Positions 1,763 through 54,420 of a DNA stretch of 64,000 nucleotides are shown one piece after another. The notes under the pieces were generated by a model. It saw nothing but the letters and a program-made list of their open reading frames with translations. It ran no database searches and had not been told where the DNA came from. Within the stretch, counting starts at the first letter, position 1. Each line of letters opens with the position of its first letter. The translations under genes were made by a program, and so were the position numbers. This DNA is from a virus (Duplodnaviria; Heunggongvirae; Uroviricota; Caudoviricetes), in IMG/VR virus record IMGVR_UViG_2718218136_000001; one strand, written 5' to 3'.

Positions 1763-2031
1763 CGAGAACATGTTCTGACGTTACTATGTTGCTTTGCGAC
1801 GGAATACAACAACGTTGCCAGCGCCGACTACATCAGGGCAATGGCTGGAGAAGTTGAGGCCCGCCAGGAGCCATCGTTACTAAGCCCTCTGATTAACAGA
1901 ATTCGCGGAACCCAAACGCTGGCACAAAAACGGGTGCCGAAAGGGGAATTAACAGGAAAAGGAAATTATCTATAAACGTCAATGCATTAGGGTATACTTC
2001 TCCATAGAACTATAAGTAAATGGAGTAAGTA

Positions 2032-3185
2032 ATGAGCGAATATGTTGAGTTAGCATACGCTGCCGCTACAAGCAGGCTTTGTCTATTTACCGGGACTGGC
2101 TTTTCAAAGGCAGTCTCGAACGGCGAAGCACCAACGTGGAAAGAACTATTAAAAAAAGTTTGCAGCAAAGTTCACAACGCCAAACAGTTGGAAGACACGT
2201 TATTCCCTGATGATAAACCACCAGCACTGAGTCTTGAAGAAGCCGCACAAATACTATCTTTGAAGCTCAACATTGAAGGCAAGTCGATTTATGATGAAAT
2301 TGTTGACATCATATCTCCAATACAACTTGGCGAAGATATATCAAATATAAAGGATTTTTTTCAAAAAAGAACATTTCGTGTCATTACAACGAATTATGAC
2401 AAGTTAGCTGAATACTTAACTGGAGATGAGGAGGTTCAGTCTATTACCCCAGGCTTACCTATTCCTAAATATCCCTCCAAAGTTAAAATATATCATGTCC
2501 ATGGTTCTATTGACTCTCACAAAACATGATTGTTACATCAGAAGACTATTTTAGGTTTATAAACTCCGACACTTATTCTCTCGAAAACTTAGCACGATGC
2601 TGCATGAAAATACAGTTGCGATATTAGGCTATTCTTTAAGCGACACGAACCTAAAAGCAATTATAAATGATTACAAAATATTCTCGAAAGGTAACACTCT
2701 GTGCTCTAATATATTTTTCATCTCTCGCAGTGAAGTAAGTCAAGATATGAAGGATTATTATTTTTATTGTTTTGGAATACGAGTAATTGACAACACCGAA
2801 ATAGACTCTTTCTTTAAGAGATTGAGCATTAACATAATGTTAATTGAAGGCGTCATAGCAAGAGCCAGACAAAGTATAAAAAGAGTTTTATCAGGCACTT
2901 TTAACTATAAGGATGAATACATTAGATTAGAAGATTCATTCTATCAAATAACTTCCTCGATTATATGAGGGTTTCGACTGGAATGACGGACAAGTAGTTG
3001 ATTTTTTCAAGAGAATAATAAAAAAAAAGAGACTTAACAAGAGAGAGTGGTGCTTGGGAGCAATACGAGCAGCTTGCAAAATGGCTTATATATTTCGGCA
3101 GCCTTTAGAAATTGGTGGAACTAAGTATGAAAATGAATATTTAGACGCCGTTGAATACTCAATGTCCAACATGAGCAAAGAATGA
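2032..3185 (+). pseudogene. SIR2-like (sirtuin-family, defence-associated type) protein, reading frame broken at least three times
   Basis: Motifs LFTGTGFS, ITTNYD, HVHGS (frame 1), then IVTSEDYFRF (frame 0, 2526 onward), then ILGYSLSDTNL (frame 2, 2597 onward), then a further frame to stop at 3183-3185; good SD (ggag) 8 nt before ATG 2032; region clearly more AT-rich than flanks by eye. Confidence 0.6.
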
Positions 3186-3381
3186 GATTAGGTTATTCGT
3201 GGCATGCTTATAGAGCTTGGGAAACAAGATGGTCCACAATCATTGCTTCAAATCGATTAATAATAAAAAACGCATCGAAGAAATTGGCGTACTGGAGGAT
3301 GCTAATTCTATAGTAAAAGATATAGTGTAATTGAAGAGCGGCAAAAATTTAACGGGCAGCTACAACTGCCCGATATATAAA

Positions 3382-3624
3382 TCAATCCGCATTCAGGAGC
3401 AATGCGTTATCTATGATGATCTGCTCCCATTCTTCGAATGCCCGGTCGCGGACGCCCTGGGGAACGCTGTTAGTTTTGAAATCGACGACCGTACGCCATT
3501 TCCCGTCCGGACGGTACATGCGCAGAGCTTTACTTCCCCCTTCCCTGCGCACCTCAACGTTATGCTTATCAGCAAACTCTTGTAATGCTCGTAGCGTCCC
3601 ATGCTTGTAGTATCGCTTTTTCAA
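3382..3624 (-). CDS. small basic protein (80 aa), TTG start; possibly Lxc/Bof-like C1 co-repressor by position and size
   Basis: ORF track; start TTG overlaps stop of upstream 40-aa ORF (TTGA); identity by recalled size/position only. Confidence 0.4.
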   Translation of the reverse strand: MKKRYYKHGTLRALQEFADKHNVEVRREGGSKALRMYRPDGKWRTVVDFKTNSVPQGVRDRAFEEWEQIIIDNALLLNAD

Positions 3625-3782: not shown

Positions 3783-4053
3783 TGTTAGCGCCGGGCGGTC
3801 ATAACGGTAAATTTGCGAACGTCACGGTCAACGAGACGACCGAAATTACCATAACCGCGCTCCAGTAATAATTTTTTAATTTCCGGCCAGTATGGACCAT
3901 AGCTGCGGTACAGGCGGGGATTTTTCAGTAATCGCCCGCGTAGCCCTGACAGAAGAAATCAACGTATTCGTCTTCTGTCTTTCCTAACAACGCTGTACGG
4001 AGTACCGCCTCAAGATATGTTTTATTCGGTTTTATTGTATCAGATAGTGTGGC
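3783..4053 (-). pseudogene. small ORF (~90 aa) interrupted by one frameshift (MATLSDTIKPNKTYLEAVLRTALLGKTEDEYVDFFCQGYAG / RLLKNPRLYRSYGPYWPEIKKLLLERGYGNFGRLVDRDVRKFTVMTARR)
   Basis: Hand translation of minus strand in two frames; ATG at 4053. Confidence 0.3.
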
Positions 4054-4089
4054 CATATTATGCGACGCCCGGCGAACCGGGCGCTCCTG

Positions 4090-7000
4090 TTATGCGTATT
4101 GTTGGATGACGGCCAGAACGTCCGCCACGTTGTGTTTTGTCTCGATAATCCACCAGTTACCCGGGAAATCGCTGTTCTTCGCCTTCGCTGGCAGCCAGCG
4201 AGCGCCGAATTTCGCCTTGATTGCGTCTTTCGCACGGAAAAGAACGCCTTTCATGCCTGAGGCTTCCTGAAGCCCAAATACCTCGCCAGCGGCGAATTTT
4301 GGTGCGTACATCATCTTCAGGTCGGCGGTGGATACGCGATAATTCAGACCAAGAGACTGAGCTATGCTGGTGGCATCACCCTGTATTGATGATAACTCTT
4401 CTTGTTTCTCGTTTCTGGCGGCAATTTCTTCCTCCGTGATGTTGCCAAGGGCCAGGTTTATCCGATCAGCGTCGGCCTGTTCTCTTCATCGGTGCGCCCG
4501 GCAAGAACCGTGTTAATTCTCTGCAATATCTCCACATGATTCTTGCGCATGCTGAGCAATTCCGGCGTAACCTCGTTAAGATCCACCAGCCCAAGGATGG
4601 CAAGGTCGGAAAACATTGATACCAGGTTGTAGGTCATGCGATAGCTGAGTTGGCCATAGGCTGATGGCAACTGCACCGCATCCATTTGATAGGCATCCAT
4701 AAATTTAGAGCCGTCGTTTACGACATCCGCAATTGCAGGTGTGATTTTCCCTGTGGTGGCGGCCTCCCTGATTGCTGTTACCCATGATTGAGTCAGTGCG
4801 GCGACTGCATGATTCAGATTGGCTTCCCGTTCTGCTGCGATGCGCGCGCTTGCTGAGTCCATTGCCTGCTTGATCTCGGCTTTATTGCTGTAAATGCCAA
4901 TGGTGCCAAACTGTGCTGTGGTGATCTCATAATCTGACGCCCGGAACTCATGGGTACCGAAAATGGCATTGGTGACCTCAAGTTCAGAATCCCCGTTACG
5001 AGTAGCCCCCTGGCTTGTTTTCTCCGGCATTTTTGCGATCGCATCCGCTATTTTCTCCTGAATTACTTCAGGGATAGCGTATCTCCGTATGACGCGATTA
5101 CATCGCCATAATTGGAGCCAAACAATTCAACCAGGAATGTTTCTGCGAACGGATCTGGCGGTTATTCCCTTCCGACATCATACCAAGCACCCATTTTGCA
5201 ATTGACGACTTCAGCGCGCCGTCACGGCGATCCGGGTAAACCGCATGCTTCAGTGGGGCCGTATAGGAACCAACAAAATCAATGCTATAGCCTGACTCTG
5301 TAGTCTGAACGCCGTATGAGTCAGTGATTTTGATCATGCCGCGCTGCTGGAAACGGTAGAAATCGTCACAGGAAATGATGTCGTTAATCCCGGCGATGGA
5401 GACGCCACCACTGATTTTCTGCATAACAGCATCTTCATCGGGAGTTACATCAACCTGTTTATCCAGCGTCTTCACATCCCAGTTACCCGATTTGGTGCCT
5501 TTGAAGGTAAAGATGATCTCCGTCTGCGCGCTGGCTGTCGAAGTCCAGCGACTTAATGCGAACGATATCACCGGCACAATCATAGTATTGGCCTACACGC
5601 CATGAGCGATCGCCGATAACAAGGAACTCATTCGCATGGTTAACCAGATCAGGATCAACATCCAGAATGCCTTTATTTATTGCATCCTCCACCAGCGGGC
5701 GCAGGCGTTTGATATCCGTCGCGGCCTTCTGAGTACGGTTCAATAATTTCTCATAGCGGGAGATGGCCTGAGAGATATTAGCCTTGCGCTGAATGGCGCT
5801 TTTCAACGACGCGCGATACTGTGCTAACAACATACGGTCTGTGTGATGGACGCTACCCCAGCGGGCTTTCCAGTCTGCGTTATCAGCTGCTTTGGCCATT
5901 ACCGCCTGTTTGAATTTGGCGACGTCGGCGGTGGTCTTTTCAAGTTCCGCTTTGCTTCGCTCCAATTCAGCGGTAAGTACCTCCACATCCTCACCAGCTG
6001 CGTGCTGCGCCTTGATGTAGTTCTGAAGGTCGATAGTAGCCTGTTCTTTCTGGCGAGCGCGTTTCGCAGCTTTCGCCTTATCCATTTGAACCTGCATCAT
6101 TACCAGACGTTCGCCGTCATCCTTCGCGGTATACATCTGCATTTCGATCATGTCATTGGCGTCGGCGTTCTCCATTTCTGACTTATCTGAACGGAGGATA
6201 TCGGAGATCCAGCCTGCTTTACGCTTCAGCGTCTTCAGTCGGTATTCATCGAAAGACCCCTTGCCGCAGTAGTAGTGAACGCGAACGCTTGCACGGTTGG
6301 AGCCAACTCGTGCACCGCGACCGTTACGTTGTGCGATACTGGCTGGTGTCCACGGCAACGTCAGGTGGTGGATATCCGTCGTTCCTCGATGCAGGTTGAT
6401 ACCCACCTCTGCCTTTTTGTTGCAGATGATGATCGGAGTCCGGCCCTCCTGGAAGTCGGCTGCAATCTTTTCCAGACCGCCCACGACATTTCATTTTGCT
6501 GCGCGATATAGGCGTCATACAGAGCCATTTGCTCGTTGTATTTCGCTATCTGTGCATCTGTTGGTTCATCCGGTAGCTCTTTCGGCGGTTTAACCGCTTT
6601 CAGTTTCTTACCGGTTTTACCTGCCTCGGCAACCGTCTGAGCATTCAGGATCCCCACCTTTGAAGGTTCAAGGTTTAGAGCATTGCAGATAATGCGCTTG
6701 AGCTTCTGGTGCTGCGTTTTTTCATCGGTGAAGATGATTTGCTTACCTTCCGGGAAAAACTCCTTCAGCGTCGCGATCAGCTTCGCGTATTTCGGCGTAA
6801 CGGGGTGAGTTACGGTCAGTTCGTCAATGCCAAACCTGGCCAGGCGCTTATTCACTTCCTGCTCGAACGCTTCCGGAACCTGCAACTGAATAAACTCGCC
6901 CTTATCTATCAGGGAGTATTGCGATTGCTGCGTGATTGAATCATCACTGTCGTCGTCTTCGCTGGTGGCTTGTTTAGGCAAACTGTCCGCAAAGCTGCTG

Positions 7001-13509: not shown

Positions 13510-13639
13510 TCAAAGTTGGCGCACGCAACTTGCCTGTTACCAAGAAATTAAGGAGGTTCCGCAAGCGGCTAACGTCCAGGCACCGCGTGAGACAAGCATC
13601 ATCACGTTTAATAATTCAATCAATCCGTTTAATTGACAC

Positions 13640-13665
13640 CCTCCACGCCCTGACGGGCGTGGAGG
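13640..13665. terminator. GC-rich hairpin cctccacgccc-tgac-gggcgtggagg between convergent genes
   Basis: Read directly; no clear U-tract. Confidence 0.3.
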
Positions 13666-13668
13666 ATG

Positions 13669-14034
13669 TCACGCTGCCTCTTTAATGTTGGCGGCTATCC
13701 ATGCCGCCGTGTGCTGTTTAACCTGGTCCAGGTCGATGTATGTGCCAACATATTGACTCAAATCCTGCAAGGTACCGATAAATGCATCGGTGCTCTGATC
13801 GACGAATTTATCAGCCAGGAAATCAGCAACCAGTTTTGGCACACCATCATGTTCCGAAGGTTGTTTTTCCTCGCCACTACCGCCGCCGGACGCGCCGTAC
13901 CCCATCTGTTGCATGATCTGGTCAATTTCATCGCTGATATCCAGCAACTCCATGCCACTCGCGGTAGCAGCTTTGGACATCAGAGAATCCAACTTGTCGC
14001 TGAGGTCCATTAACTCAATAGCTGATAGTGTCAT
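13669..14034 (-). CDS. hypothetical acidic protein (121 aa), DdrA-like position
   Basis: ORF track; position downstream of DarA-like gene. Confidence 0.35.
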   Translation of the reverse strand: MTLSAIELMDLSDKLDSLMSKAATASGMELLDISDEIDQIMQQMGYGASGGGSGEEKQPSEHDGVPKLVADFLADKFVDQSTDAFIGTLQDLSQYVGTYIDLDQVKQHTAAWIAANIKEAA

Positions 14035-17658: not shown

Positions 17659-17785
17659 AACTATTTCCTTAATAGTGAATTAAATATCATTGGGAAACGG
17701 TATGTACTTTGTGATTTCCACACATACTGGTTTTTGTTAATTAAAATCCGCAGCTTGCTATAAATAACGATAGTGAGCAGAAAAT

Positions 17786-18346
17786 ATGCTAATAGGCTAT
17801 GTACGCGTATCAACAAATGAACAAAACACTGCTTTACAACGAAACGCTCTTGAAAGCGCAGGATGTGAGCTAATTTTTGAGGACAAGGCGAGCGGCAAAA
17901 AGGCTGAGCGCCCTGGGTTAAAAAAGGTACTCCGTATGCTTTCCAGAGGTGATACCCTGGTCGTATGGAAGTTAGATCGTCTTGGGCGCAGCATGCGTCA
18001 CTTAGTTGTGCTGGTGGAAGAGCTGCGTGACAGAGGCATTAACTTCCGGAGTCTCACTGACTCCATCGACACCAGTACACCAATGGGGCGCTTTTTCTTT
18101 CACGTAATGGGGGCGCTGGCAGAAATGGAACGTGAACTTATTGTTGAACGTACACGCGCTGGACTTGATGCAGCTCGCGCAGAAGGTCGAATAGGTGGGC
18201 GTCGGCCTAAATACCAGAAAGAAACATGGCAGCAAATGCGGCGATTGCTGGAGAAGGGCATCCCCCGTAAGCAGGTTGCAATCATCTATGATGTGGCTGT
18301 TTCCACTCTTTATAAGAAGTTTCCGGCGTCATCATTTCAATCCTAA
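17786..18346 (+). CDS. cin: serine DNA invertase, Cin/Gin/Pin/Hin family (186 aa)
   Basis: N-terminus MLIGYVRVSTNEQNTALQRNAL, catalytic Ser in VRVST, TLVVWKLDRLGRSMRHL, C-terminal HTH; adjacent to invertible segment. Confidence 0.9.
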   Translation: MLIGYVRVSTNEQNTALQRNALESAGCELIFEDKASGKKAERPGLKKVLRMLSRGDTLVVWKLDRLGRSMRHLVVLVEELRDRGINFRSLTDSIDTSTPMGRFFFHVMGALAEMERELIVERTRAGLDAARAEGRIGGRRPKYQKETWQQMRRLLEKGIPRKQVAIIYDVAVSTLYKKFPASSFQS

Positions 18347-18363
18347 ACCTTGGTTTAAGAGAA
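18338..18363. promoter_or_regulatory. left inversion crossover site (cix/hix-like 12-2-12: caatcctaaACC TT GGTttaagagaa)
   Basis: Matches hix/gix-type architecture; mirrored by site at 22634-22659. Confidence 0.55.
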
Positions 18364-18946
18364 CTCGGTACCAGCGGTGAAAAGATCCCCCTGTTGAGCA
18401 CGGCTAACACATGGAGTGCACGCCAGACTTTCAACGGCGGGATCACCGGGGCGCTGACAGGGAACGCCGATACCGCAACAAAATTGAAAACAGCCAGAAA
18501 CATTAATGGCGTCAGGTTCGATGGTTCTGGTGACATTAATATCAATACTCTGGTATCGCGCGGTCGCGTAACGGCCCTGGAGGCGAATGCACAGGGAACA
18601 TCCGGGATTCAGCTGTATGAGGCATACAACAATGGCTACCCTTCCCCCTATGGCAATGTGCTTCACCTTAAAGGTGCCACCGCTGCTGGCGAAGGTGAGT
18701 TATTCATTGGCTGGAGTGGCACGAGCGGTACCCATGCGCCCGTACATATCCGTTCGCGGCGGGATACTGATTCTGCCAACTGGTCTGAATGGGCGCAGGT
18801 CTATACGTCAAAAGATTCAATTCCCGGCGTCAATGCCAAAGGGGATCAGGATACCTCTGGTAATGCGGCTACAGCGACCAAGTTGCAGACAGCATGTACT
18901 ATCAACGGTGTCTCGTTTGATGGTTCTAAAAATATTGAGCTAACGG
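18350..18946. repeat. left inverted repeat (~597 bp) of invertible segment
   Basis: Identical ~190-aa tail-fibre translation in + ORF 18394.. and - ORF 21089..; boundaries checked by reverse complement at both ends. Confidence 0.9.
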
Positions 18947-19995
18947 CGGAAGATTTAAATCTACAGGAAACGGTAAACAAGGCTGATAACGCGGTTCAAA
19001 AGACAGGCGATACCTTGTCCGGTGGACTTACTTTTGAAAACGACTCAATCCTTGCCTGGATTCGGAATACTGACTGGGCGAAGATTGGTTTTAAAAATGA
19101 TGCCGACAGCGATACTGATTCATACATGTGGTTTGAAACAGGCGACAACGGCAATGAATATTTCAAATGGAGAAGTCGCCAGAGCACCACAACAAAAGAC
19201 CTGATGAATCTTAAATGGGATGCTTTGTCTGTCCTTGTTAAAGCCCTTTTCAGCAGTGAAGTAAAAATATCGACAGTCAATGCACTAAGGATATTTAATT
19301 CATCTTTTGGTGCTATTTTTCGTCGTTCTGAAGAATGCCTGCATATCATCCCTACACGAGAGAATGAGGGGGAAAATGGTGATATAGGGCCACTACGTCC
19401 CTTTACACTTAATCTCAGAACTGGCCGTATAACTATGGGGCATGGTCTGGATGTTACAGGAGATATAACAACTAACGCCTGGGTGTATGCAAACAGGTTT
19501 GCTATTAACAGCAGTAATGGTATGTGGATTCAGATGCGCGATAACAACGCTATCTTTGGGAAAAATATAGTTAACACTGATAGCGCCCAGGCATTGCTAC
19601 GTCAGGACCATGCTGATCGCAAATTTATGATTGGTGGTCTGGGGAATAAGCAATTTGGCATCTACATGATTAATAATTCAAGGACAGCCAATGGTACCGA
19701 TGGTCAGGCGTACATGGATAATAACGGGAACTGGCTTTGCGGCTCGCAAGTTATTCCCGGCAACTATGGCAATTTTGACTCCAGATATGTGAAAGATGTT
19801 CGACTTGGTTCACAGCAATATTATGGAGTGAACAACTGGCAAACATGGAATTTCCAGTGCCCTTCAGGTCATGTATTGTCTGGTATTAATGTTCAGGATA
19901 CAGGGTCCAACTCTGCCGATAATATAGCAGGCGTTTATTACAGACCCGTTCAAAAGTATATAAATGGCACCTGGTATAATGTAGCGAGCGTTTAA
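18394..19995 (+). CDS. alternative tail-fibre C-terminal cassette (Sv'-like), currently not joined to the constant N-terminal part
   Basis: Shares IR-encoded segment with S then diverges after ...GSKNIELT; frame open from 18352. Confidence 0.6.
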
Positions 19996-19996
19996 T

Positions 19997-20524
19997 ATGA
20001 TGCACTTAAAGAACATACAAGCGGGTAATGCTAAAACACTGGAGCAGTATGAGTTAACAAAGAAGCACGGAGTCATCTGGCTTTACTCTGAGGACGAAAA
20101 AAACTGGTATGAGGAAGTGAAAAACTTTCAGCCAGACACCATAAAGATTGTTTACGATGAAAATAATATTATTGTCGCCATCACCAAAGATGCCTCCACG
20201 CTTAACCCTGAAGGTTTTAGCGTCGTTGAGGTTCCCGACATAACAGCCAACCGCCGCGCTGATGATTCAGGAAAGTGGATGTTTAAGGATGGAGCTGTAG
20301 TTAAACGGATTTATACGGCAGACGAACAGCAACAACAAGCCGAATCACAAAAGGCCGCATTGCTTTCCGAAGCTGAATCAGTCATCCAGCCGCTGGAACG
20401 CGCTGTCAGGCTGAATATGGCAACAGACGAGGAACGCACACGACTGGAAGCATGGGAACGCTACAGTGTTCTGGTCAGCCGTGTGGATACGGCAAATCCT
20501 GAATGGCCACAAAAGCCTGAATAA
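19997..20524 (+). CDS. tail-fibre assembly protein (U'-like, 175 aa)
   Basis: Paralog of 20553..21086 ([11 protein letters not shown].. vs MMHLRNITAGN..); immediately follows Sv'. Confidence 0.6.
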
Positions 20525-20530
20525 AAATTA

Positions 20531-20549
20531 AGGCCCGCTATCGGGCCTT
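20531..20549. terminator. bidirectional hairpin aggcccg-cta-tcgggcct between convergent assembly genes
   Basis: Read directly. Confidence 0.45.
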
Positions 20550-20552
20550 GTC

Positions 20553-21086
20553 TCATTCAGGTTGTTCGGGAAATGTTACTGGTAGGCTGGAGGTGTCTGT
20601 GGATTCGACTTTCTGCGCAAAGAGCATCCACTCGGTTAATTTCTGCTTATTCTCGGCGGAAATGATACCCAGCCGTAGCTGTGAGTCCCATAGCTGGGTT
20701 TTATCCCTGACGAGCTGTAGCAGACTTTGCTTTTCATTTTCCGCTTGTTGCCTCTGCTCTTCCTCGGTATAAGTTCGCTTTACCACTACGCCATCTTTGA
20801 ACATCCATTTACCAGAAATATCAGCCCGGCGATTTGCTGTAATATCAGGTAATTCAACGACGCTTGCGCCTTCTGGATTAATTGCTGAAACATCCTTTTC
20901 AATACAAATAATAACGCCGTTGTGGTCATAGGCCATTTTCAACGTATCATACTGGAAATTCTTTTGTTCCTCATACCAGTTTTTTCCATCCTCTGTATAA
21001 AGCCATTTGATGTTAAATTGTTTCGTTAGCTGGTATTGCTCTTTTGTTTTAGGGTTGCCAGCTGTAATATTTCTTAAGTGCATCAT
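20553..21086 (-). CDS. tail-fibre assembly protein (U-like, 177 aa)
   Basis: Immediately downstream of expressed tail-fibre gene. Confidence 0.65.
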   Translation of the reverse strand: MMHLRNITAGNPKTKEQYQLTKQFNIKWLYTEDGKNWYEEQKNFQYDTLKMAYDHNGVIICIEKDVSAINPEGASVVELPDITANRRADISGKWMFKDGVVVKRTYTEEEQRQQAENEKQSLLQLVRDKTQLWDSQLRLGIISAENKQKLTEWMLFAQKVESTDTSSLPVTFPEQPE

Positions 21087-21088
21087 AA

Positions 21089-24007
21089 TTAAATACTCCC
21101 CGCGTTATACCACGTCCCATTAATGCAATACTGAATTGGCCTTGCCTGAGTTGTATCAATTAATTCATCACGGTTTCCGTTAACTGAACCAGTAACGACA
21201 TAACCTGACCTGTCAGACCAGCCAGGACCATTCCATGTCTGAACAGATGACAGACCGCCAAGGCGAATACCTGTAATAAACCTTGAGTTACATTCTGCCT
21301 GCGTATATGCACCAACATCTCCCGCAGAGGGTTTGCGTGTTGTGGTGTAAAACTCTGACCAGTTAGCTTCAAAGCCATAACCATCACGCGCTGAACGATA
21401 AAAGATACCGCCATTTCTGTAATTCACGCGGAACTGTACAGCAGGGCAACTCCCCGCATTCATATTAAAGTGGAGGATTAATGTCGATGCGCCACTGATA
21501 TCTGCATCATAAACGCCGCTATTCCAGTTCCAGCCAACAGCTTTATCATTTGCGACCCTGCGTCCTGTTTGCCCTAAAGCAAATGCAGGCTGCTGGTTTT
21601 TCGTGTTGTAGTCTCGTCGCCAGCCAGGAGCGTAAGCATCACCATGATTAATATAAGTGAATTGAGCGTTAGTGATTCCGCCACCGCTGGACGTGCTCGG
21701 CGTAGTAACGCGTATGGTCATGGCACCTTTATTACCCATAACCTCAATAACGCAACCTGCAAGATGAATAGTTCCACAGCCAGTATCGGTTATAATTTTA
21801 TTATTGCCGTACGACCATGAACATTTGCACATCCAGTATGGGTGATTGAATGCCCCTTGAGAATCCAGCCATTCAATCAATTGTGCCGTTGTCCAGTTCC
21901 CTGCACCTGTACTAATAGAACTGTGAAAAGCGCGACATGCACCAATATTTTTAGTGAAGGTATCTTTTCCAGGAATATCCGCGCCGTTCTGATTTTTCTG
22001 CAATGACCCAGCGGCTAATTCTACTGTTCGCTCAAGATTTAAATTTTCAACCGTTAGCTCAATATTTTTAGAACCATCAAACGAGACACCGTTGATAGTA
22101 CATGCTGTCTGCAACTTGGTCGCTGTAGCCGCATTACCAGAGGTATCCTGATCCCCTTTGGCATTGACGCCGGGAATTGAATCTTTTGACGTATAGACCT
22201 GCGCCCATTCAGACCAGTTGGCAGAATCAGTATCCCGCCGCGAACGGATATGTACGGGCGCATGGGTACCGCTCGTGCCACTCCAGCCAATGAATAACTC
22301 ACCTTCGCCAGCAGCGGTGGCACCTTTAAGGTGAAGCACATTGCCATAGGGGGAAGGGTAGCCATTGTTGTATGCCTCATACAGCTGAATCCCGGATGTT
22401 CCCTGTGCATTCGCCTCCAGGGCCGTTACGCGACCGCGCGATACCAGAGTATTGATATTAATGTCACCAGAACCATCGAACCTGACGCCATTAATGTTTC
22501 TGGCTGTTTTCAATTTTGTTGCGGTATCGGCGTTCCCTGTCAGCGCCCCGGTGATCCCGCCGTTGAAAGTCTGGCGTGCACTCCATGTGTTAGCCGTGCT
22601 CAACAGGGGGATCTTTTCACCGCTGGTACCGAGTTCTCTTAAACCAAGGTATTGGATAACAGCAAGAACGCTTGTTTTGGCCAGAATATCGCGACCAACT
22701 GACGTTAAGTCAGTCTGAGAAACAGTGTCTGTACCGGTAAAGTACGGCAATTTATTTGCGCCTGTCGCAAGACCAGCAAGCGCGGTTAAAGTTGCATCAA
22801 GTGGCTGTTTCCCTGCCAGCGCATTTGTCATTGTTGTCGCAAAGTTCGGGTCATTGCCCAGTGCTGCTGCAAGCTCATTCAGGGTATCAAGAGCTTCAGG
22901 TGATGAGCCGACCAATGCAGAGATAGCAGCCCGTACGTAAGCAGTCGTAGCGATCTGCGTATTGTTTGTGCCCTGTGCAGCCGTAGGCGCAGTAGGGACA
23001 CCCGTTAATGCAGGGCTTGCCAAAGGCGCTTTGAGAGCCAAGGCATTGTTGATAGTTGTGCTGTAATTCGGGTCGTTATTGATCGCAGCCGCTATTTCTT
23101 TCAGCGTATCCAGTGTGCCAGGCGCACCGTTGATAAGTGCAGTTATAGCTGCCTTAACAAAGGCTGTATTTGCGATCTGCGTGCTGTTTGTACCTTGCGC
23201 TGCCGTCGGCGCGGTTGGCGTTCCTGTCAGACTCGGGCTTTCTATTGGCGCTTTGGTATCAGCCAGATCTTTTATAGACTTAACAGCTTTAGGGGTAGCC
23301 GCCATTGTTTCGCTGTCGCTGTTAGTTGCGCTACTGAGCTGAACTAATCCCTTTTGCGTTGTGCTTGCATCCTGCGCCGTATACTTGCTTTTCGCCAGAT
23401 CGTAGGCTTTTTTAACTGCCAGCGAACTTGCAGCAACATCACTTCTGGTACTGGTTACAGAGTCTGAAATATCAATGCCGATCGTGCGGTTGATACGCTC
23501 GGATGTATCAATCATCTCCTGGGTAATGGCAGATACACCAGCAGGGATATTCACCGTACAAACAAGCAGCTCCCCATCTCCTAACTGATATGAATCGGTA
23601 TAGGTTCTGGCAACAAATTCAGCCGCATGAATATGTGACGCGGTATTCACCTGATAGGTATCTTCTCCAAGGAGGTATCTTCCCTTCAGCACAATTGCAT
23701 ATTTCTTGCCTGCACTAAGTGCAAGAGAAATATCCTTACGTTGCTGAATAGTTACCTGGTAGAATTCACCAATATCCACCGACGCCGCGCCTGCGGTTTT
23801 ATCACCATCCACTGAGGTGATTAACAGGTTCATCCCACCGCCAGGCTTAGGTAAGAAACCGGCATAAAATCCCGGGTCAACAATCCCCCTGAATTTTCGG
23901 TTTAGCGCGGCTGACAGATATGGTTCGTGGTATTGCACATCAGCCACCAGAGCCAACGACTCGGGTGATGGGTAAGTAACTGATGTAACAACTGTAACGT
24001 CATTCAT
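21089..24007 (-). CDS. tail fibre protein (S-like); constant N-terminal part outside, variable C-terminal part inside the invertible segment; likely start MNDVTVV at 24007
   Basis: 1001-aa ORF; repeated collagen-like and fibre motifs; spans right crossover site. Confidence 0.8.
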   Translation of the reverse strand: MNDVTVVTSVTYPSPESLALVADVQYHEPYLSAALNRKFRGIVDPGFYAGFLPKPGGGMNLLITSVDGDKTAGAASVDIGEFYQVTIQQRKDISLALSAGKKYAIVLKGRYLLGEDTYQVNTASHIHAAEFVARTYTDSYQLGDGELLVCTVNIPAGVSAITQEMIDTSERINRTIGIDISDSVTSTRSDVAASSLAVKKAYDLAKSKYTAQDASTTQKGLVQLSSATNSDSETMAATPKAVKSIKDLADTKAPIESPSLTGTPTAPTAAQGTNSTQIANTAFVKAAITALINGAPGTLDTLKEIAAAINNDPNYSTTINNALALKAPLASPALTGVPTAPTAAQGTNNTQIATTAYVRAAISALVGSSPEALDTLNELAAALGNDPNFATTMTNALAGKQPLDATLTALAGLATGANKLPYFTGTDTVSQTDLTSVGRDILAKTSVLAVIQYLGLRELGTSGEKIPLLSTANTWSARQTFNGGITGALTGNADTATKLKTARNINGVRFDGSGDININTLVSRGRVTALEANAQGTSGIQLYEAYNNGYPSPYGNVLHLKGATAAGEGELFIGWSGTSGTHAPVHIRSRRDTDSANWSEWAQVYTSKDSIPGVNAKGDQDTSGNAATATKLQTACTINGVSFDGSKNIELTVENLNLERTVELAAGSLQKNQNGADIPGKDTFTKNIGACRAFHSSISTGAGNWTTAQLIEWLDSQGAFNHPYWMCKCSWSYGNNKIITDTGCGTIHLAGCVIEVMGNKGAMTIRVTTPSTSSGGGITNAQFTYINHGDAYAPGWRRDYNTKNQQPAFALGQTGRRVANDKAVGWNWNSGVYDADISGASTLILHFNMNAGSCPAVQFRVNYRNGGIFYRSARDGYGFEANWSEFYTTTRKPSAGDVGAYTQAECNSRFITGIRLGGLSSVQTWNGPGWSDRSGYVVTGSVNGNRDELIDTTQARPIQYCINGTWYNAGSI
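22051..22647. repeat. right inverted repeat (~597 bp) of invertible segment
   Basis: Reverse complement of 18350-18946. Confidence 0.9.
22634..22659. promoter_or_regulatory. right inversion crossover site (ttctcttaaACC AA GGTattggataa)
   Basis: Mirror of left site; lies inside S coding sequence. Confidence 0.55.
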
Positions 24008-24018
24008 CAAGCATATCC

Positions 24019-24453
24019 TTATGCTGTTGTCGTGTTTATGGCCATAACTGCGGTATATGTTTTGCCCACATACAGCGAGTCTTCCTGGACACAAATAATG
24101 GCGATTGGCTTGTTCTCGTTATCCAGAACAACCAGAGTGTTGAATGGGTAGTTTTTCCCTTCCTGCAACTGGCTTTGATCAAGGTCCATTCGGACAGTAA
24201 TTATCCCGCCTGAGTAGGTTGGGACGAGGTTGATGGTGCAAAATTGACTGGTCAGTTCTGCCAGATCGAAAACCTTTGGCAGTTCTCCAATCTCATAAGT
24301 GCCATCTCCTTTCTTAGTAACCAGTGAACTGGTACCGAAAACGGCCTTGCTGATTAAAAATCGAGAGCCTTTGTTAATGGACGATTCAGCGCGCCGCTGA
24401 TAGTAATAGTCCAACAACTGACTCTTATAGAGGTTTGTTGAGACGTCAGACAT
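24019..24453 (-). CDS. tail-fibre-associated structural protein (R-like, 144 aa)
   Basis: Position directly upstream of S. Confidence 0.4.
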   Translation of the reverse strand: MSDVSTNLYKSQLLDYYYQRRAESSINKGSRFLISKAVFGTSSLVTKKGDGTYEIGELPKVFDLAELTSQFCTINLVPTYSGGIITVRMDLDQSQLQEGKNYPFNTLVVLDNENKPIAIICVQEDSLYVGKTYTAVMAINTTTA

Positions 24454-24531
24454 GATTTTCCCTAATCAATGTTGTGAAGCCTCATTGTAAGAGAAGTAAC
24501 TTGTCACCCCGCCCTGCGGACGGGGTGATTG

Positions 24532-37591: not shown

Positions 37592-37641
37592 TAGATTGCT
37601 CTAATCTGGAGTCACCTGGCGTTTTCAGTTTGAGGTCGGAG

Positions 37642-37887
37642 ATGCAATCTGATTTTTTACAGTTAGCGATCGCTTTTGCAGGATATGTTTGTATTGGCTT
37701 CTGTGTATACATGATCAGCCGAAAAATGCTTGTCGATATCGACCGCAAAGAACAAGCAGAGGAGATCTTAGTATGGATTTTCTTTGGCGCGGTCTGGCCA
37801 TTAGGGATCATGTTTGCTGCAACATTTCTTCTGATGTGGATATTCACCCTTCCAGGTGATTTCTATAGAAAAAAAGCCAGACATTGA
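37642..37887 (+). CDS. small membrane protein (~81 aa, two hydrophobic helices)
   Basis: Internal ATG of ORF 37561..37887. Confidence 0.3.
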   Translation: MQSDFLQLAIAFAGYVCIGFCVYMISRKMLVDIDRKEQAEEILVWIFFGAVWPLGIMFAATFLLMWIFTLPGDFYRKKARH

Positions 37888-38010
37888 TACAATCGTTGCG
37901 GGTGCTTGAGGCTATCTGCTTCAGGCATTACCCGAAAAGCAGATAGAAGAAAGCCCCAGATAACATTACGCGTCCTGCAAGACGCTTAACATTAATCTGA
38001 GGCCATATCT

Positions 38011-38217
38011 ATGCTTAGCATACGTAGATTAGCCTCTTACCGACCAAAAGGTCAAGGAGAAGCAGGCTATGAAGCAGCAAAAAGCGATGTTAATCGCTCT
38101 GATCGTCATCTGTTTAACCGTCATTGTGACGGCACTGGTAACGAGGAAAGACCTCTGCGAGGTACGAATCCGAACCGGCCAGACGGAGGTCACTGTCTTC
38201 ACAGCCTACGAATCTGA
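38011..38217 (+). CDS. Mok-like overlapping reading frame (68 aa)
   Basis: Overlaps hok in another frame and ends 7 nt before hok stop. Confidence 0.4.
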   Translation: MLSIRRLASYRPKGQGEAGYEAAKSDVNRSDRHLFNRHCDGTGNEERPLRGTNPNRPDGGHCLHSLRI

Positions 38218-38224
38218 AAGGTAA
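38069..38224 (+). CDS. hok: Hok/Gef-family type I toxin (51 aa: MKQQKAMLIALIVICLTVIVTALVTRKDLCEVRIRTGQTEVTVFTAYESER)
   Basis: Hand translation; conserved LTRK.LCE.R...TEV..F.AYES Hok signature; below 60-aa ORF-track cutoff. Confidence 0.8.
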   Translation: MKQQKAMLIALIVICLTVIVTALVTRKDLCEVRIRTGQTEVTVFTAYESER

Positions 38225-38298
38225 GAGACCTGGCGGGGAGAGATCCCTGCCACTCTTCGTGTGTCAGGTATCCTCAATGCACCCTTTCCTCTCCAAAT

Positions 38299-43689: not shown

Positions 43690-43925
43690 TGTGAATCCCT
43701 TTTCGGAAGAGATTTTATTGAAAGTCACTTGTTGACTTTCTCGCTAAAAGTAATTTTTTAAATTTTTTGTGCGGGGGAGGGGGCAAGTAAAACAGGCGTG
43801 AAATCGTGGGAATTTCAGTCTGAAATTTTCTATGAATATCTATATATATCATATATTTATACATGAAATAGGCGCGGGACATTTTAGACAGGGGAGGGGG
43901 CTAAAGCCGCCTCCCACCAGCGGGA
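43690..43925. promoter_or_regulatory. partition site parS-like region (heptamer GTGAAAT/ATTTCAG motifs, AT-rich bend, flanking gggggagggggc repeats)
   Basis: Read directly downstream of parB. Confidence 0.5.
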
Positions 43926-44891
43926 TTATTCCCCAGCAGACATTTTCCCAATGATTTTTTTTATTGCTTCGTCAATTTCAGTTTGCACTTCAGACGGGAG
44001 TCTGGAGAACTCGTAGGCGACAACCCGTTTTTTCGGATCGGACTTCTTTCGGGCATATTGGCGACGGTCAGAGAAGTCTCGCAGCTTCTCAACCACCACA
44101 GATTTAACCGGCGCGGGCTTCAGGCTTTTGCTTTCCGCTTTGAAGATAGCCAGTATCTTCGCTTTATCCTCTTTCGCGCCCTCAGTCTCTGCAATTCGTT
44201 CGCGCACCGTATCAACCAGCTCTTCAATCGGCACGCTTTTAGCGTTAGCATCCTCGGCGATCTGGAGCAGTAACTGGTAATCTGGAAGGGCGAGATCGCT
44301 GGCTACGGGGAAGACAGCAATCATCTCATCCGGCACTGCCGCAGCCTGGAAAGCTCGCGTCACTTTAGCCTTTGAGATGTTCTCAGCTCGGGCGATCTCT
44401 TCTTTGGTCATATTCTTACCGTACATAACCTCGAAGCGTTTACCCAGCTCGCGCAGAGTGTGTTCGCGGGCTGTCTGGATATCAATGGCCAGCTGGCGGG
44501 CATCCGCCAGGCTGATCTCATCTTTCGTCACCAGAATCTCAAATTTCGTTTCATTGAAGATACACGCAGCGCGGCGACGCGATCCGTCCAATACCTCAAT
44601 GCGCTCCCCAACCATACGACCGATAGCCGGGAAGAACTGTTGCAATTTAATGGTGCGGGAAATATCGCTTACCGACTCAGGGGTGAGCAGAGACTGATCG
44701 CGGCCGTTAACTGCCGGGTCAACGAACGTGCGCGACTCAATCTCACCACTCAGCACGACGGTAAGCAAGAATTTAGCCTGGCGGCCAGATTTTAGGGTAA
44801 AGGTTTTGGTACCTTCACTGCCTTCAAGCATGCGAGCAAACTCGGAGCTATTCTTGCCCAGCACTCGTCCACGGGAAACTATTTTTTTCAT
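43926..44891 (-). CDS. parB: partition protein ParB (321 aa)
   Basis: Follows parA with overlapping stop/start; ParB-like HTH region. Confidence 0.8.
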   Translation of the reverse strand: MKKIVSRGRVLGKNSSEFARMLEGSEGTKTFTLKSGRQAKFLLTVVLSGEIESRTFVDPAVNGRDQSLLTPESVSDISRTIKLQQFFPAIGRMVGERIEVLDGSRRRAACIFNETKFEILVTKDEISLADARQLAIDIQTAREHTLRELGKRFEVMYGKNMTKEEIARAENISKAKVTRAFQAAAVPDEMIAVFPVASDLALPDYQLLLQIAEDANAKSVPIEELVDTVRERIAETEGAKEDKAKILAIFKAESKSLKPAPVKSVVVEKLRDFSDRRQYARKKSDPKKRVVAYEFSRLPSEVQTEIDEAIKKIIGKMSAGE

Positions 44892-46099
44892 GCCGCCTCA
44901 CCCCTAACAAACTCAATTCGATCAAACACAGCCTTAGTGAAACGCTCGGCCTCGGTTCGTGCCTTCTTCAGCGCCTCTGCACTGCCTGGATACGATTGCG
45001 GGTTGGCACTGATTACGGTGTCGAAAGACTCGCCGCATCGCTCAAAGCCATCCAGACGAGGCAGAGAAGAGTCCAGAATGTTGCTGGCGTAAACCTCACG
45101 CGCAAGGCTGTGTGATGTCTCGTGATCGCGCTTGCCGGTCATCTTCGACATAAAACCAATGCTGGCGCTCAAACGCGGTTCTACGCCTTCCTCCTCCAGT
45201 TGCTCCAGCATTTCTGGCAGACGGGTGAGATATTTCAGTGTTGAGTGGAAGTCAACCTGGGCTGGTGGGGTAGGGGTAAGCAGCAAATCGCTGGCCGCCA
45301 GACCGTTGAGCAGGAACGGATCCAGGTGTGGACCGGTATCAATAAAGATAAAGTCATAATCATCCGCAACACGATCAATGATATTGCGTCGAAGGATTTC
45401 GTACTGATTTTGTCCGGGAAGATGCTCTTCAACCAGCTCTTTCCATTGGCTGGCAACAAAGCCATCGTCGATAGAGGCTGGAATCACGTCTACGCCAGGA
45501 ACGATGGTCGGACGAATCACCTCTTTGCGTAGCGTCTCCGCGTCCAGGTCGTTCAGCATCGCCTGCGCGGCGGTTTCCAGGATGGAACCAATACTGTGAG
45601 TATGGTCGAGGAACATTGTGCTGGATGCCTGAGGGTCAAGGTCAATTACCAGAATGCGCAGATCGTGACGCAGTAAATCCTGATGCACACGCAGAGCGTG
45701 CGCCAACGTGACTGTGGAAACCGTTTTGGATACGCCACCCTTCAGGTTTACGACAAAAATAACGTAAGGCGATTTGTGAATGTCGCGATATTTGGGGATC
45801 TTACGGTGGGCATAGATATCAATGACGTTCTGGATGGTCAGCGCGTACTGTTCAACGTTACCGACCTGTTTCTTGTTGAACTGGTACCCATCATCTTCCA
45901 TCTCTTTGATGGCCTGCTCCACAATACGGCGGCTCAGCTTCGGCAACTTTGCCACAGCGTTACGAGTGAACGTCTGATAATACTCGGTCTGATTGAACTC
46001 TTTGCGCTGATCTTCAATATCCTGACTCATGGCCTTAAGTAATGCGCTTGCACGAAGAGCTATGGTGCCGACACCGCCGTAATCGCGTTTCATCATCAT
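44888..46099 (-). CDS. parA: partition ATPase ParA (type Ia, 403 aa)
   Basis: Deviant Walker A NLKGGVSKT; strong resemblance to P1 ParA as recalled. Confidence 0.9.
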   Translation of the reverse strand: MMMKRDYGGVGTIALRASALLKAMSQDIEDQRKEFNQTEYYQTFTRNAVAKLPKLSRRIVEQAIKEMEDDGYQFNKKQVGNVEQYALTIQNVIDIYAHRKIPKYRDIHKSPYVIFVVNLKGGVSKTVSTVTLAHALRVHQDLLRHDLRILVIDLDPQASSTMFLDHTHSIGSILETAAQAMLNDLDAETLRKEVIRPTIVPGVDVIPASIDDGFVASQWKELVEEHLPGQNQYEILRRNIIDRVADDYDFIFIDTGPHLDPFLLNGLAASDLLLTPTPPAQVDFHSTLKYLTRLPEMLEQLEEEGVEPRLSASIGFMSKMTGKRDHETSHSLAREVYASNILDSSLPRLDGFERCGESFDTVISANPQSYPGSAEALKKARTEAERFTKAVFDRIEFVRGEAA

Positions 46100-46199
46100 C
46101 TCCTTATCATTTCGTATGAGTGAATTGTACGTTTGATTCTGCTACGTGCAACTTTTTTTGATTCGTGCGTCAATTATTGCACGTAAAGAAATGGCGATG

Positions 46200-46495
46200 T
46201 GGCTATTAGATGTGTGCTGGAGGGATGATGCAGGACCAGAATGTGCGATAGAGGGAAGTCGCATTAAATTATGTGCTGTGGAGGGATCGCTGGTATCAAA
46301 TATGTGTGCTGGAGGGAAAGGCAGAGAATTACATGTGCACTGGAGGGAAAAACGGATGGACAGATGTGTGCTGGAGGGAAAGTCTGGGCAAACTGCGGGG
46401 CGTCCCCCTCCAGCGCACATCAAAAACAGGAAATTGGACAAGCCTTCCCGGCAGCACACATTTTTTTAATGCAGCTTCCCTCCAGCACACACTTA
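46200..46495. repeat. incA-like iteron array (~8-9 copies of GATGTGTGCTGGAGGGAAA in both orientations)
   Basis: Repeats read directly downstream of repA. Confidence 0.8.
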
Positions 46496-50238: not shown

Positions 50239-51136
50239 GCACTGGAAAAATATTACTATTTATAAACTTTCTCGTGAGGCGGATCTGACCGACTTAGAAG
50301 ATAAAAAGAAAATGATCCTTTTCACGCCATGCGGTAGTCAGGATATGGCCAAGTTCGGTTTTGTATCGCCATTTGGTGATAATTCCGAAGTTATCGCTAT
50401 GCATGGAAATGGTTTTATCCTTGTTGAAGCAAAGCGCGAAACAAAAATTCTTCCCCCGCCGGTTATCCAGCGAGCTATTCAAGAAAAAATTGAAAAACTT
50501 GAGCAAGAACAAGCGCGTAAACTGAAGAAAACAGAGAAGGACTCCCTGAAAGACGAAGTTCTGCATTCTCTTCTGCCACGGGCTTTTTCAAAGTTTTCTG
50601 TTATCCAGGCGATCTACGACGGTTCAACTAAACGTATCTATATCAATGCCAGCGCGCGGCAGGCAGAGGATATGCTCGCGCTTATGCGTAAGTCTCTGGG
50701 TTCTCTTCCTGTTGTGCCACTAAGTGTTGAAAATCCCATTGAGTTAACGCTGACCGACTGGGTACGTGATGCTAGTGCTCCACAGGGATTTCAAATGGGG
50801 GATGCGGCAGAACTTAAGGCAGTGCTTGAGGATGGCGGTATCGCCCGAGTGAAAAAGCAGGATTTGGGAAGCGATGAAATTTCCACACACCTGGAAGCTG
50901 GCAAGCTCGTCACTAAGTTGGCACTCGACTGGCAGAACCGCATTAAATTTACACTGGACCATAACTTCAGCATTACCAGCGTCAATTTTGCGGATGAATT
51001 GCTTGAGCAGAACTCTGATATTGATAGTGAAGATGTTGCGCAGCGACTGGACGCAGATTTCTTCCTATTGACCAGTGAAATTTCGTGCCTGGTTGATGCT
51101 CTGGTAAATGCCCTTGGTGGAGAGGCTAAGCAGTGA
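50231..51136 (+). CDS. hrdC: RdgC-family recombination-associated protein (HrdC-like)
   Basis: Close resemblance to RdgC throughout ([44 protein letters not shown]). Confidence 0.8.
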
Positions 51137-54100: not shown

Positions 54101-54420
54101 CAGCGGTGATTGAAGCTGCCGGAGAAGGAGATGTCATCTTTTGCGATCCGCCGTATGAACCGCTTCCAAATACAGAGGGATTCACGAACTATTCCGGTCA
54201 TGACTTTAAGTTTGAAGAGCAAAAACGCCTGGTGTCTCTGTTGACGGATGCTCATCGCCGAGGTGCAAAGGTTCTCATTACTAACAGTGGCGCGCCAAAC
54301 ATCAGAGAGCTTTATCATGACAATGGCTTCAGAGTGGAACCTCTTTTTGCCAGACGTTCTGTGTCTTGTAAGGGGGACACTCGAGGTGTTGCTCATGACG
54401 CCTTAGGTATATTGCTCTAA
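51133..54420 (+). CDS. dmt: bifunctional DNA methyltransferase Dmt (N-terminal C5-cytosine MTase + C-terminal Dam-like N6-adenine MTase), intein-containing precursor (1095 aa)
   Basis: C5 motifs I (SVCSGIEAA), IV split GGTP|C..intein..|[10 protein letters not shown] (VWENVPG), VIII (QRRRRVFVV), IX-X ([26 protein letters not shown]); Dam motifs [21 protein letters not shown]; GTG start overlaps hrdC stop. Confidence 0.85.
51364..52386 (+). mobile_element. intein (341 aa) with LAGLIDADG homing-endonuclease domain inserted at catalytic Cys of C5-MTase motif IV
   Basis: Begins CFTAGHMVL, block [18 protein letters not shown] motifs [11 protein letters not shown] and [11 protein letters not shown], ends ...GAVVHN followed by +1 Cys; in frame, exteins rejoin to GGTPCQAFS. 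Confidence 0.8.

Follow-up and report, generated by a model that had tools for sequence, protein, structure and literature searches.

The question raised by this locus is whether a serine invertase gene and the segment of about 4.3 kb beside it form a working host-range switch, and to which known inversion system they belong. Site-specific inversion of the C-segment by Cin at cix sites has been a textbook case since the early 1980s, and the P1 reference genome carries a base-by-base annotation of the C-segment. We analysed a 64 kb stretch of DNA (the window), which is collinear with P1 coordinates ~1.5–78 kb at 96–99% identity. The feature is, with a probability of roughly 93%, the classical Cin/cix C-segment host-range switch of a P1-family phage-plasmid. 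The elements named in the original prediction all lie at the coordinates it gave, and its interpretation holds throughout. It spoke of a Cin/Gin-family invertase and hix/cix-like sites; judged by sequence, the locus is more than that and corresponds to the P1 C-segment itself, because the cix sites, the enhancer and the cin promoter region are identical to the annotated P1 reference. The gene order is also the same as in the annotated P1 and P7 C-segments, and we found nothing in the sequence that contradicts a P1-type C-segment.

The invertase gene cin (17786–18346, plus strand) encodes a 186-aa serine DNA invertase with the resolvase catalytic domain and C-terminal helix-turn-helix of the small serine recombinases (Pfam Resolvase, 4e-51; HTH_7, 2e-18). 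The Mu Gin structures 3UJ3 and 4M6F match Cin over their full length (residues 1–182, E = 2e-89), and the catalytic Ser9 is present and aligns with Ser9 of Gin in 4M6F, 3UJ3 being the S9A form. The end-to-end alignment with Gin, together with 99.5% identity to P1 Cin (185 of 186 residues), bears out the placement of a Cin/Gin-family invertase directly beside the segment. The sole change relative to P1 is E145K, residue 145 being lysine in Mu Gin at the same position; this substitution is a caveat to the functional reading.

Over the 150 nt upstream of cin the sequence does not differ from that of P1. The promoter region (17664–17747, plus strand), which would contain the predicted P2cin and P1cin of P1, was transferred by coordinate offset, its positions being those predicted in the P1 annotation and assigned here by identity with P1; a consensus promoter scan called no plus-strand promoter upstream of cin. 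The 5' part of cin carries a cis recombinational enhancer of 72 bp (17804–17875, plus strand), identical at 72 of 72 positions to the P1 enhancer annotated at NC_005856 31678–31749. This element is Fis-dependent in P1 and, by that identity, probably binds Fis here as well.

The end of cin lies inside the left crossover site, cixL (18338–18363), a 26-bp site of 12-2-12 structure that overlaps the TAA stop codon at 18344–18346. Its sequence is CAATCCTAAACC-TT-GGTTTAAGAGAA, with the core TT at 18350–18351, and the crossover annotated in P1 at 32224/32225 maps to 18350/18351 here. The right site, cixR (22634–22659), has the same 12-2-12 structure and 26-bp length, reads TTCTCTTAAACC-AA-GGTATTGGATAA and has its core AA at 22646–22647. 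Both cix regions are identical to their P1 counterparts. The plus-strand cores TT and AA are the same core in inverted orientation, as inversion requires, so that the segment is flanked by two inverted 26-bp sites with matching cores. The outer ends of the two sites, 18338 and 22659, are those of the interval for which hix/cix-like boundaries had been proposed. The right crossover site was also correctly placed within the S coding sequence, since cixR covers about codons 450–458 and its core falls in codon 454. When the 64 kb were searched with a 16-mer that combines the inner half-site with the core and two more bases, exactly two occurrences were found, even with 3 mismatches allowed. Extra or quasi-cix sites, as in a p15B-like shufflon, were sought over the same 64 kb at up to 3 mismatches and none were detected.

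The two sites are joined to long inverted repeats. A repeat search returned arms at 18340–18975 and 22022–22657 (636 nt at 98%), and base-by-base comparison of these arms revealed a perfect core of 600 bp, with its left arm at 18347–18946 and its right arm at 22051–22650. Measured from the crossover dinucleotide at 18350 the repeat is 597 bp, which agrees with the length of about 597 bp first reported. The repeats encode the first 199 residues of the variable part, identical in both Sv variants; this is the shared tail-fibre segment of about 0.6 kb that had been anticipated. A perfect inverted repeat of 600 bp cannot be due to chance. Chance or an assembly artefact as its origin was rejected on the identity of 600/600, the exact coincidence of its ends with the cix sites and the synteny of the locus with P1 and P7.

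The segment carries two opposed cassettes, one of which is in frame with a constant part transcribed from outside. In its present form S (21089–24007, minus strand) is an open reading frame of 972 aa in which the constant part Sc is fused to Sv'; alignment to P1 and P7 S places the true start at the ATG at 24007, and the protein contains the Pfam domain Phage_fiber_2. Sc (22648–24007, minus strand; codons 1–453) shares 98.9% identity with its P1 counterpart. For the Sv' part (21089–22647, minus strand) the identity is 98.1% to P1 Sv' and just 49% to P1 Sv. It is followed by the expressed tail-fibre assembly gene U' (20553–21086, minus strand; 177 aa; Pfam Caudo_TAP, 1e-35), which is identical to P1 U' at 177 of 177 residues. 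On the opposite strand lie the silent Sv (18352–19995, plus strand), a P1 Sv homologue with an open frame of 548 codons that lacks the constant part, and the silent assembly gene U (19997–20524, plus strand; 175 aa; Caudo_TAP, 1e-37), which is 93.7% identical to P1 U. A terminator-like hairpin on the minus strand (20530–20549) separates the convergent U genes; its 8-bp stem includes 6 G-C pairs and precedes AATTTTTATT on the minus strand, and the hairpin stands directly after the U' stop and has the same sequence in P1.

These open reading frames and their Caudo_TAP domains substantiate the proposal of two alternative fibre C-termini and two assembly genes in opposite orientations. The original prediction also held that the minus-strand pair is joined to the constant part and that the plus-strand cassette is silent. 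Both statements agree with our data, since the former is in frame with Sc across cixR and the latter has no constant part and is in a frame that differs from that of cin. We also considered whether read-through from cin might lead to translation of the silent cassette and set this aside: the Sv frame differs from that of cin, Sc is absent and the only open frame is a mechanical one initiated at TTG. By homology the pair predicted to be expressed is P1 Sv'/U' (98.1% and 100% identical) and not Sv/U, which places the segment in the C(-) orientation of the P1 nomenclature.

Upstream of S lies R (24019–24453, minus strand), which heads the R-S-U tail-fibre operon; it is an open reading frame of 144 aa in a block 98.5% identical to P1, with the length and the N- and C-terminal residues of P1 and P7 R. 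The late promoter LPs of this operon (24484–24502, minus strand), located outside the invertible segment, is identical to the annotated P1 LPs at 18 of 19 positions. Its -22 box AAGTTACTT and its -10 box TACAAT are intact, and the lone mismatch is in the spacer.

As read from the sequence, LPs transcribes R, then Sc and then, through cixR, whichever variable cassette faces it. That cassette is currently Sv'-U', which means that virions produced from this molecule would bear the S' fibre. On the paradigm of P1, Mu and Hin, Cin dimers would bind the two inverted 26-bp cix sites and an invertasome would form on supercoiled DNA with Fis on the enhancer inside cin. All four strands would then be cut by Ser9 at the 2-bp core, one pair of subunits would rotate by 180 degrees and the 4,296-bp segment would be religated in reverse orientation. 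The Fis/enhancer invertasome mechanism has been described (PMC3798978), as has C-segment inversion by Cin at the cix sites, which switches between the S and S' fibres (bioRxiv 10.1101/2022.07.24.501295; PMC6906374). According to the literature inversion is slow in P1 lysogens, which for this reason give mixed progeny with two adsorption specificities.

Inverting the segment in silico at the cores regenerated both cix sites and brought Sc in frame with the other Sv, resulting in an intact S of 1001 aa followed by U. Switching in this particular element is inferred, since its one assembled molecule displays a single orientation. A census of contiguous junctions found the present type in 26 public plasmid records and the flipped type in 68, and the present type in 17 complete E. 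coli genomes and the flipped type in 46; these counts depend on allele similarity and on the orientation that each assembler reported, and the records are not mutually independent. No flipped copy of this element was found at 99% identity or above in the census, the best flipped junctions reaching 98.6% in the E. coli genomes and 97.9% in the plasmids. Because these values are below 99%, the census shows both states within the family and not within one clone. With the flanks as reference, the segment has the opposite state in the P1 record to that in the window, and the P7 record agrees with the window.

Comparison with named systems supports the assignment to P1. The P1 C-segment (NC_005856: cin 31660–32220, C-segment 32225–36480) has the same gene order, inverted repeats of 0.6 kb and a conserved LPs, but its record is in the C(+) orientation, compared with C(-) here. 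The segment measures 4,296 bp here and 4,256 bp in P1, because the silent Sv is 14 codons longer than that of P1. The P7 C-segment (AF503408) has the same architecture and, with respect to the homologous cassettes, its record is oriented as the window is. P7 Cin is 97.8% identical to Cin here, whereas the region upstream of cin is unrelated, the alleles of the fibre are distinct (87% and 69% identity) and in P7 the U gene beside S is split into Ua and Ub.

The Mu G-segment with Gin, a homologous invertase, follows the same logic of a constant Sc and alternative Sv cassettes, and over its unique portion the segment here shows homology to Mu S/U/U'/S', with ~90% nucleotide identity. However, the inverted repeats of Mu are short, about 34 bp against 0.6 kb here, and Mu is a transposable phage whereas the present element is a plasmid prophage. 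Plasmid p15B contains multiple crossover sites and numerous fibre segments, in contrast to the two sites found here. Its invertase, Min, is related to Cin and is flanked by P1-like tail-fibre genes (P1 annotation notes). Salmonella Hin belongs to the same DNA-invertase subfamily (Hin/Gin/Cin/Pin) and uses 26-bp hix sites and a Fis-bound enhancer invertasome (PMC3798978), but Hin flips a promoter in flagellar phase variation while Cin swaps the 3' ends of a coding sequence.

The only departure of the switch from P1 is a mosaic silent Sv allele, which has 80.3% amino acid identity to P1 Sv. Two stretches of this gene, 19249–19489 and 19809–19950, have no match in P1, and its tip is 89% identical to an SfMu fibre and 94% identical (70% coverage) to a P2-type fibre. 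The same allele is found in E. albertii plasmids at 99.9%, which hints at an adaptation to E. albertii.

An explanation that we consider rather improbable is that the element is a defective P1-like plasmid prophage in which the C-segment is a relic that no longer affects host range, since no infectious particles would be released. The region corresponding to P1 20034–27541 (lydE, lydD, lyz, ssb, isaA, IS1, isaB, hxr, ddrB) is missing between pro and ddrA, and tblastn of the 64 kb window found no homologue of Lyz, Ssb or DdrB. The pro-ddrA junction of the window is contiguous in none of 489 matching plasmid records, and genes are retained at this position in the P1 isolate OP279344.1 and in an E. 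albertii relative. In addition, the switches of published P1-like plasmids are often degraded, with cin truncated or the C-segment degraded in many of these plasmids (PMC6906374). On the other hand, about 30 kb of a P1-size genome lie beyond the window and could carry a lysis gene, and the holin genes lydA, lydB and lydC are intact, as are all tail, baseplate and fibre genes seen. The switch components are all intact as well, and the identity of the repeats at 600 of 600 positions fits ongoing or recent use. This bears on our main reading too: were lyz, the endolysin gene, likewise missing from the part of the replicon beyond the window, particles might not be released, and flipping would then have no host-range consequence.

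The perfect inverted repeat of 600 bp present in the segment is a good substrate for homologous recombination. Inversion might thus proceed chiefly by RecA-dependent recombination across the repeats with little contribution of Cin, but this is very unlikely, as the repeats stop exactly at the conserved cix sites and adjoin an intact Cin and enhancer. Moreover, PMC6906374 and bioRxiv 10.1101/2022.07.24.501295, in citing Iida et al. (1982), describe P1 inversion as cin-dependent and as mapping to the cix sites. Homologous recombination could supplement Cin activity and would not replace it. A multi-site shufflon such as Min of p15B, with many fibre variants, is hardly conceivable, for although flanking sequence is common to P1 and p15B (P1 annotation notes), the 64 kb contain two cix sites, even at 3 mismatches, and two Sv/U cassettes, instead of more than two of each, and the architecture is identical to that of P1.

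The Cin/cix C-segment of P1 thus remains our reading of the locus: an already known textbook switch, which is complete here and, from its sequence, looks functional. Its value as a discovery is small, and for annotation a P1-like phage-plasmid with a complete switch is worth recording. On S. flexneri 2a/5a and E. coli O3, P1 carrying the S' fibre depends on the O-antigen (bioRxiv 10.1101/2022.07.24.501295; PMC6906374). The present S' (C(-)) state is the one in which P1 adsorbs to Shigella flexneri and E. coli O3 that bear O-antigen and not to K-12. We suggest, tentatively, that the silent Sv could confer a receptor specificity unlike that of P1(S), so that the element might toggle between an O-antigen-dependent S' fibre and a host range uncharacterised in P1. 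This variant alternative fibre may be of interest for P1 host-range engineering.

The feature at 18338-22659 is the already known C-segment/Cin system of phage P1, complete and in the C(-) state. A 6.7-kb region around it matches the annotated C-segments of phages P7 (AF503408) and P1 (NC_005856), and Mu-type G-segments match it over its unique part; at full length it is 99.2% identical to Escherichia albertii plasmids. By local BLAST, the window is collinear throughout with P1 from ~1,479 to 78,246 at 96-99% identity, with a few blocks replaced or missing, and it is therefore a portion of a P1-family phage-plasmid. We compared the switch part by part with the P1 reference, which is annotated base by base. 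Cin is identical at 185/186 residues, and its sole change, E145K, gives the residue that Mu Gin carries at that position. The enhancer within cin (17804-17875; 72/72) and the 150 nt 5' of cin are unchanged, the constant part of S (Sc) is 98.9% identical, and LPs, the late promoter of R-S-U located 5' of R, matches at 18/19 positions with its -22 and -10 elements intact. The P1-type C-segment of the window is apparently functional.

The invertase that the original prediction had placed beside the segment is the cin ORF (17786-18346, plus strand), which encodes 186 aa with Resolvase and HTH_7 domains and whose stop codon falls in the left crossover site, within its outer half-site. The segment carries, as had been proposed, two fibre C-termini and two assembly genes in opposite orientations. 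On the plus strand, the silent variable cassette (Sv; 18352-19995) has an open frame but no proper start, and a U homologue follows it (19997-20524; 175 aa, Caudo_TAP). On the minus strand, the U' homologue (20553-21086; 177 aa, Caudo_TAP), directly after which lies a G+C-rich hairpin with a T-run on that strand (20530-20549), is preceded by the long S frame (21089-24007; 972 aa from the ATG common to P1 and P7 S), which contains Phage_fiber_2 repeats and passes straight through the right crossover site, so that this site does lie within the S coding sequence. The R gene (24019-24453; 144 aa) is upstream of S.

In a repeat search of the region, a single inverted repeat stood out; its arms, 636 nt each at 18340-18975 and 22022-22657, are 98% complementary. 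Base-by-base comparison revealed a perfect core of 600 bp (18347-18946 versus 22051-22650), outside which there are two mismatches in the outer half-sites, and similarity fades past 18946; the predicted length of 597 bp is exact if the crossover dinucleotide (18350) is taken as the first position of the perfect stretch. The repeats encode the first 199 residues common to both Sv variants, which is the shared fibre segment that had been predicted. Two 26-bp sites of 12-2-12 structure form the exact ends of the interval: cixL at 18338-18363 (CAATCCTAAACC-TT-GGTTTAAGAGAA) and cixR at 22634-22659 (TTCTCTTAAACC-AA-GGTATTGGATAA). Even when three mismatches were allowed, a 16-mer comprising the inner half-site, the core and two further bases had just two occurrences in the 64 kb. 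Both cix regions are identical to the P1 reference, and the crossovers annotated there (32224/32225 and 36480/36481) correspond to 18350/18351 and 22646/22647, the centres of the two cores.

At present Sc is joined to the minus-strand cassette, which shares 98.1% identity with P1 Sv' but just 49% with P1 Sv, and whose assembly protein is identical to P1 U' (177/177). The plus-strand cassette adjoining cin is the counterpart of P1 Sv/U (U 93.7%, Sv 80.3% identical). P1 nomenclature therefore calls this state C(-); the P1 reference record has the opposite one, and the P7 record the same one for the homologous cassettes. The minus-strand pair had rightly been taken as expressed and the plus-strand pair as silent, but the expressed pair is S'/U' rather than S-U. 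When the DNA between the cores was inverted in silico, both cix sites were regenerated, Sc was in frame with the other Sv in an uninterrupted S of 1001 aa, and the 175-aa U started one base past the S stop.

The sole notable difference between this switch and that of P1 is the silent Sv allele, which has 548 codons instead of 534, so the segment is 4,296 bp long, as compared with 4,256 bp in P1. Positions 19249-19489 and 19809-19950 had no match in P1 by local BLAST. Across its entire tip region (19200-19996), the allele shows 89% identity to the SfMu fibre gene and 94% (at 70% coverage) to the gene for a P2-type fibre. Fibre tips are typically mosaic in this way, and the mosaicism might, speculatively, change the receptor.

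To count both orientations among relatives, we used a 1,836-bp query of the present junction, which joined cin and the repeat to the 600 bp of unique sequence currently beside the repeat, and a flipped query with the unique sequence that inversion would place next to the repeat. Since more than 30% of the query is taken up by its cin part and more than 30% by its unique part, 80% coverage can be reached only by a contiguous junction. Present and flipped junctions numbered 26 versus 68 in plasmid records and 17 versus 46 in complete E. coli genomes, the best flipped match being 98.6% identical, the records not independent and an assembly reporting one orientation. At the level of the family, relatives thus commonly show either state, which would be expected of an active switch. 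The E. albertii plasmids NZ_CP099904.1 and NZ_CP099870.1 each contain a present-type (99.9%) and a flipped-type (97.8%) cin junction at distant positions, and thus two P1-like C-segment copies per record of 123-133 kb; either two P1-like elements have formed a cointegrate or the assembly has merged them.

The sequence itself shows a late promoter outside the segment, a gene whose 5' part is constant and two opposed 3' cassettes. It also shows two crossover sites that are inverted and have identical cores, along with the enhancer and an intact invertase. By the paradigm of the family (PMC3798978), invertase dimers on both sites would join enhancer-bound Fis dimers at a supercoiled branch, the catalytic serines would cut all four strands, and one subunit pair would rotate 180 degrees before the strands are religated. 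In P1, Cin inversion at cix toggles S and S' fibres, and lysogens give mixed progeny because inversion is slow; on K-12 and C strains P1(S) uses the LPS core, and P1(S') depends on O-antigen and transduces E. coli O3 as well as S. flexneri 2a and 5a (bioRxiv 10.1101/2022.07.24.501295; PMC6906374).

Additionally, other loci of the window depart from the P1 reference. The dmt ORF (51133-54420, plus strand) contains a 341-aa in-frame insert (51364-52386) not in the P1 reference, which begins with Cys and ends with His-Asn; the next residue is Cys, and the insert interrupts the catalytic motif of the C5-methyltransferase (GGTP/C...HN/CQAFS, slashes marking the insert ends). With Pfam matches to Hint_2, LAGLIDADG_3 and Intein_splicing, it resembles an intein that carries a homing endonuclease and sits at the catalytic cysteine. 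The block matches 132 plasmid and 5 phage records, a P1 isolate and RCS47 among them, with identities of 95% or higher (at least 99% in 127 plasmid and 5/5 phage records), where the only annotation is as a portion of Dmt; one keyword search of a literature collection found no paper describing it. In place of the res-mod locus (EcoPI type III restriction-modification system), the window has 1.4 kb (1976-3383) with two adjacent ORFs, 2032-2529 and 2597-2968, that match SIR2_2, one its N-terminal and the other its C-terminal part; they may represent one SIR2-like defence gene that a frameshift or stop codon has divided. The sim (superimmunity) locus is replaced (32795-34170) by minus-strand ORFs for a DUF5384 protein (32823-33362) and a weakly TraT-like or glycine-zipper protein (33366-33887), and the rlfA/rlfB region (37606-38298) is likewise replaced. 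The partition genes (43830-46205) are far more divergent than the remaining backbone (ParA 58%, ParB 43% protein identity to P1), which suggests a different partition or incompatibility type.

A block of ~7.5 kb (P1 20034-27541), with lydE, lydD, lyz, ssb, isaA, IS1, isaB, hxr and ddrB, is absent, and pro consequently abuts ddrA at 13632-13673. Homologues of Lyz, Ssb and DdrB were not found in the 64 kb by tblastn, the pro-ddrA junction was contiguous in 0/489 matching plasmid records, and lydE-ddrB is kept in a P1 isolate. In the closest relative (E. albertii NZ_CP099884.1), a gene for TnpB, of an RNA-guided endonuclease family, lies at 3954-5162 of the compared locus between ddrA and ddrB, exactly at the site of the deletion in the window. 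The element may be lysis-defective and unable to release particles, unless an endolysin (lyz) is encoded in the rest of the replicon. If the endolysin is also absent outside the window, this would be an intact switch without phenotypic output.
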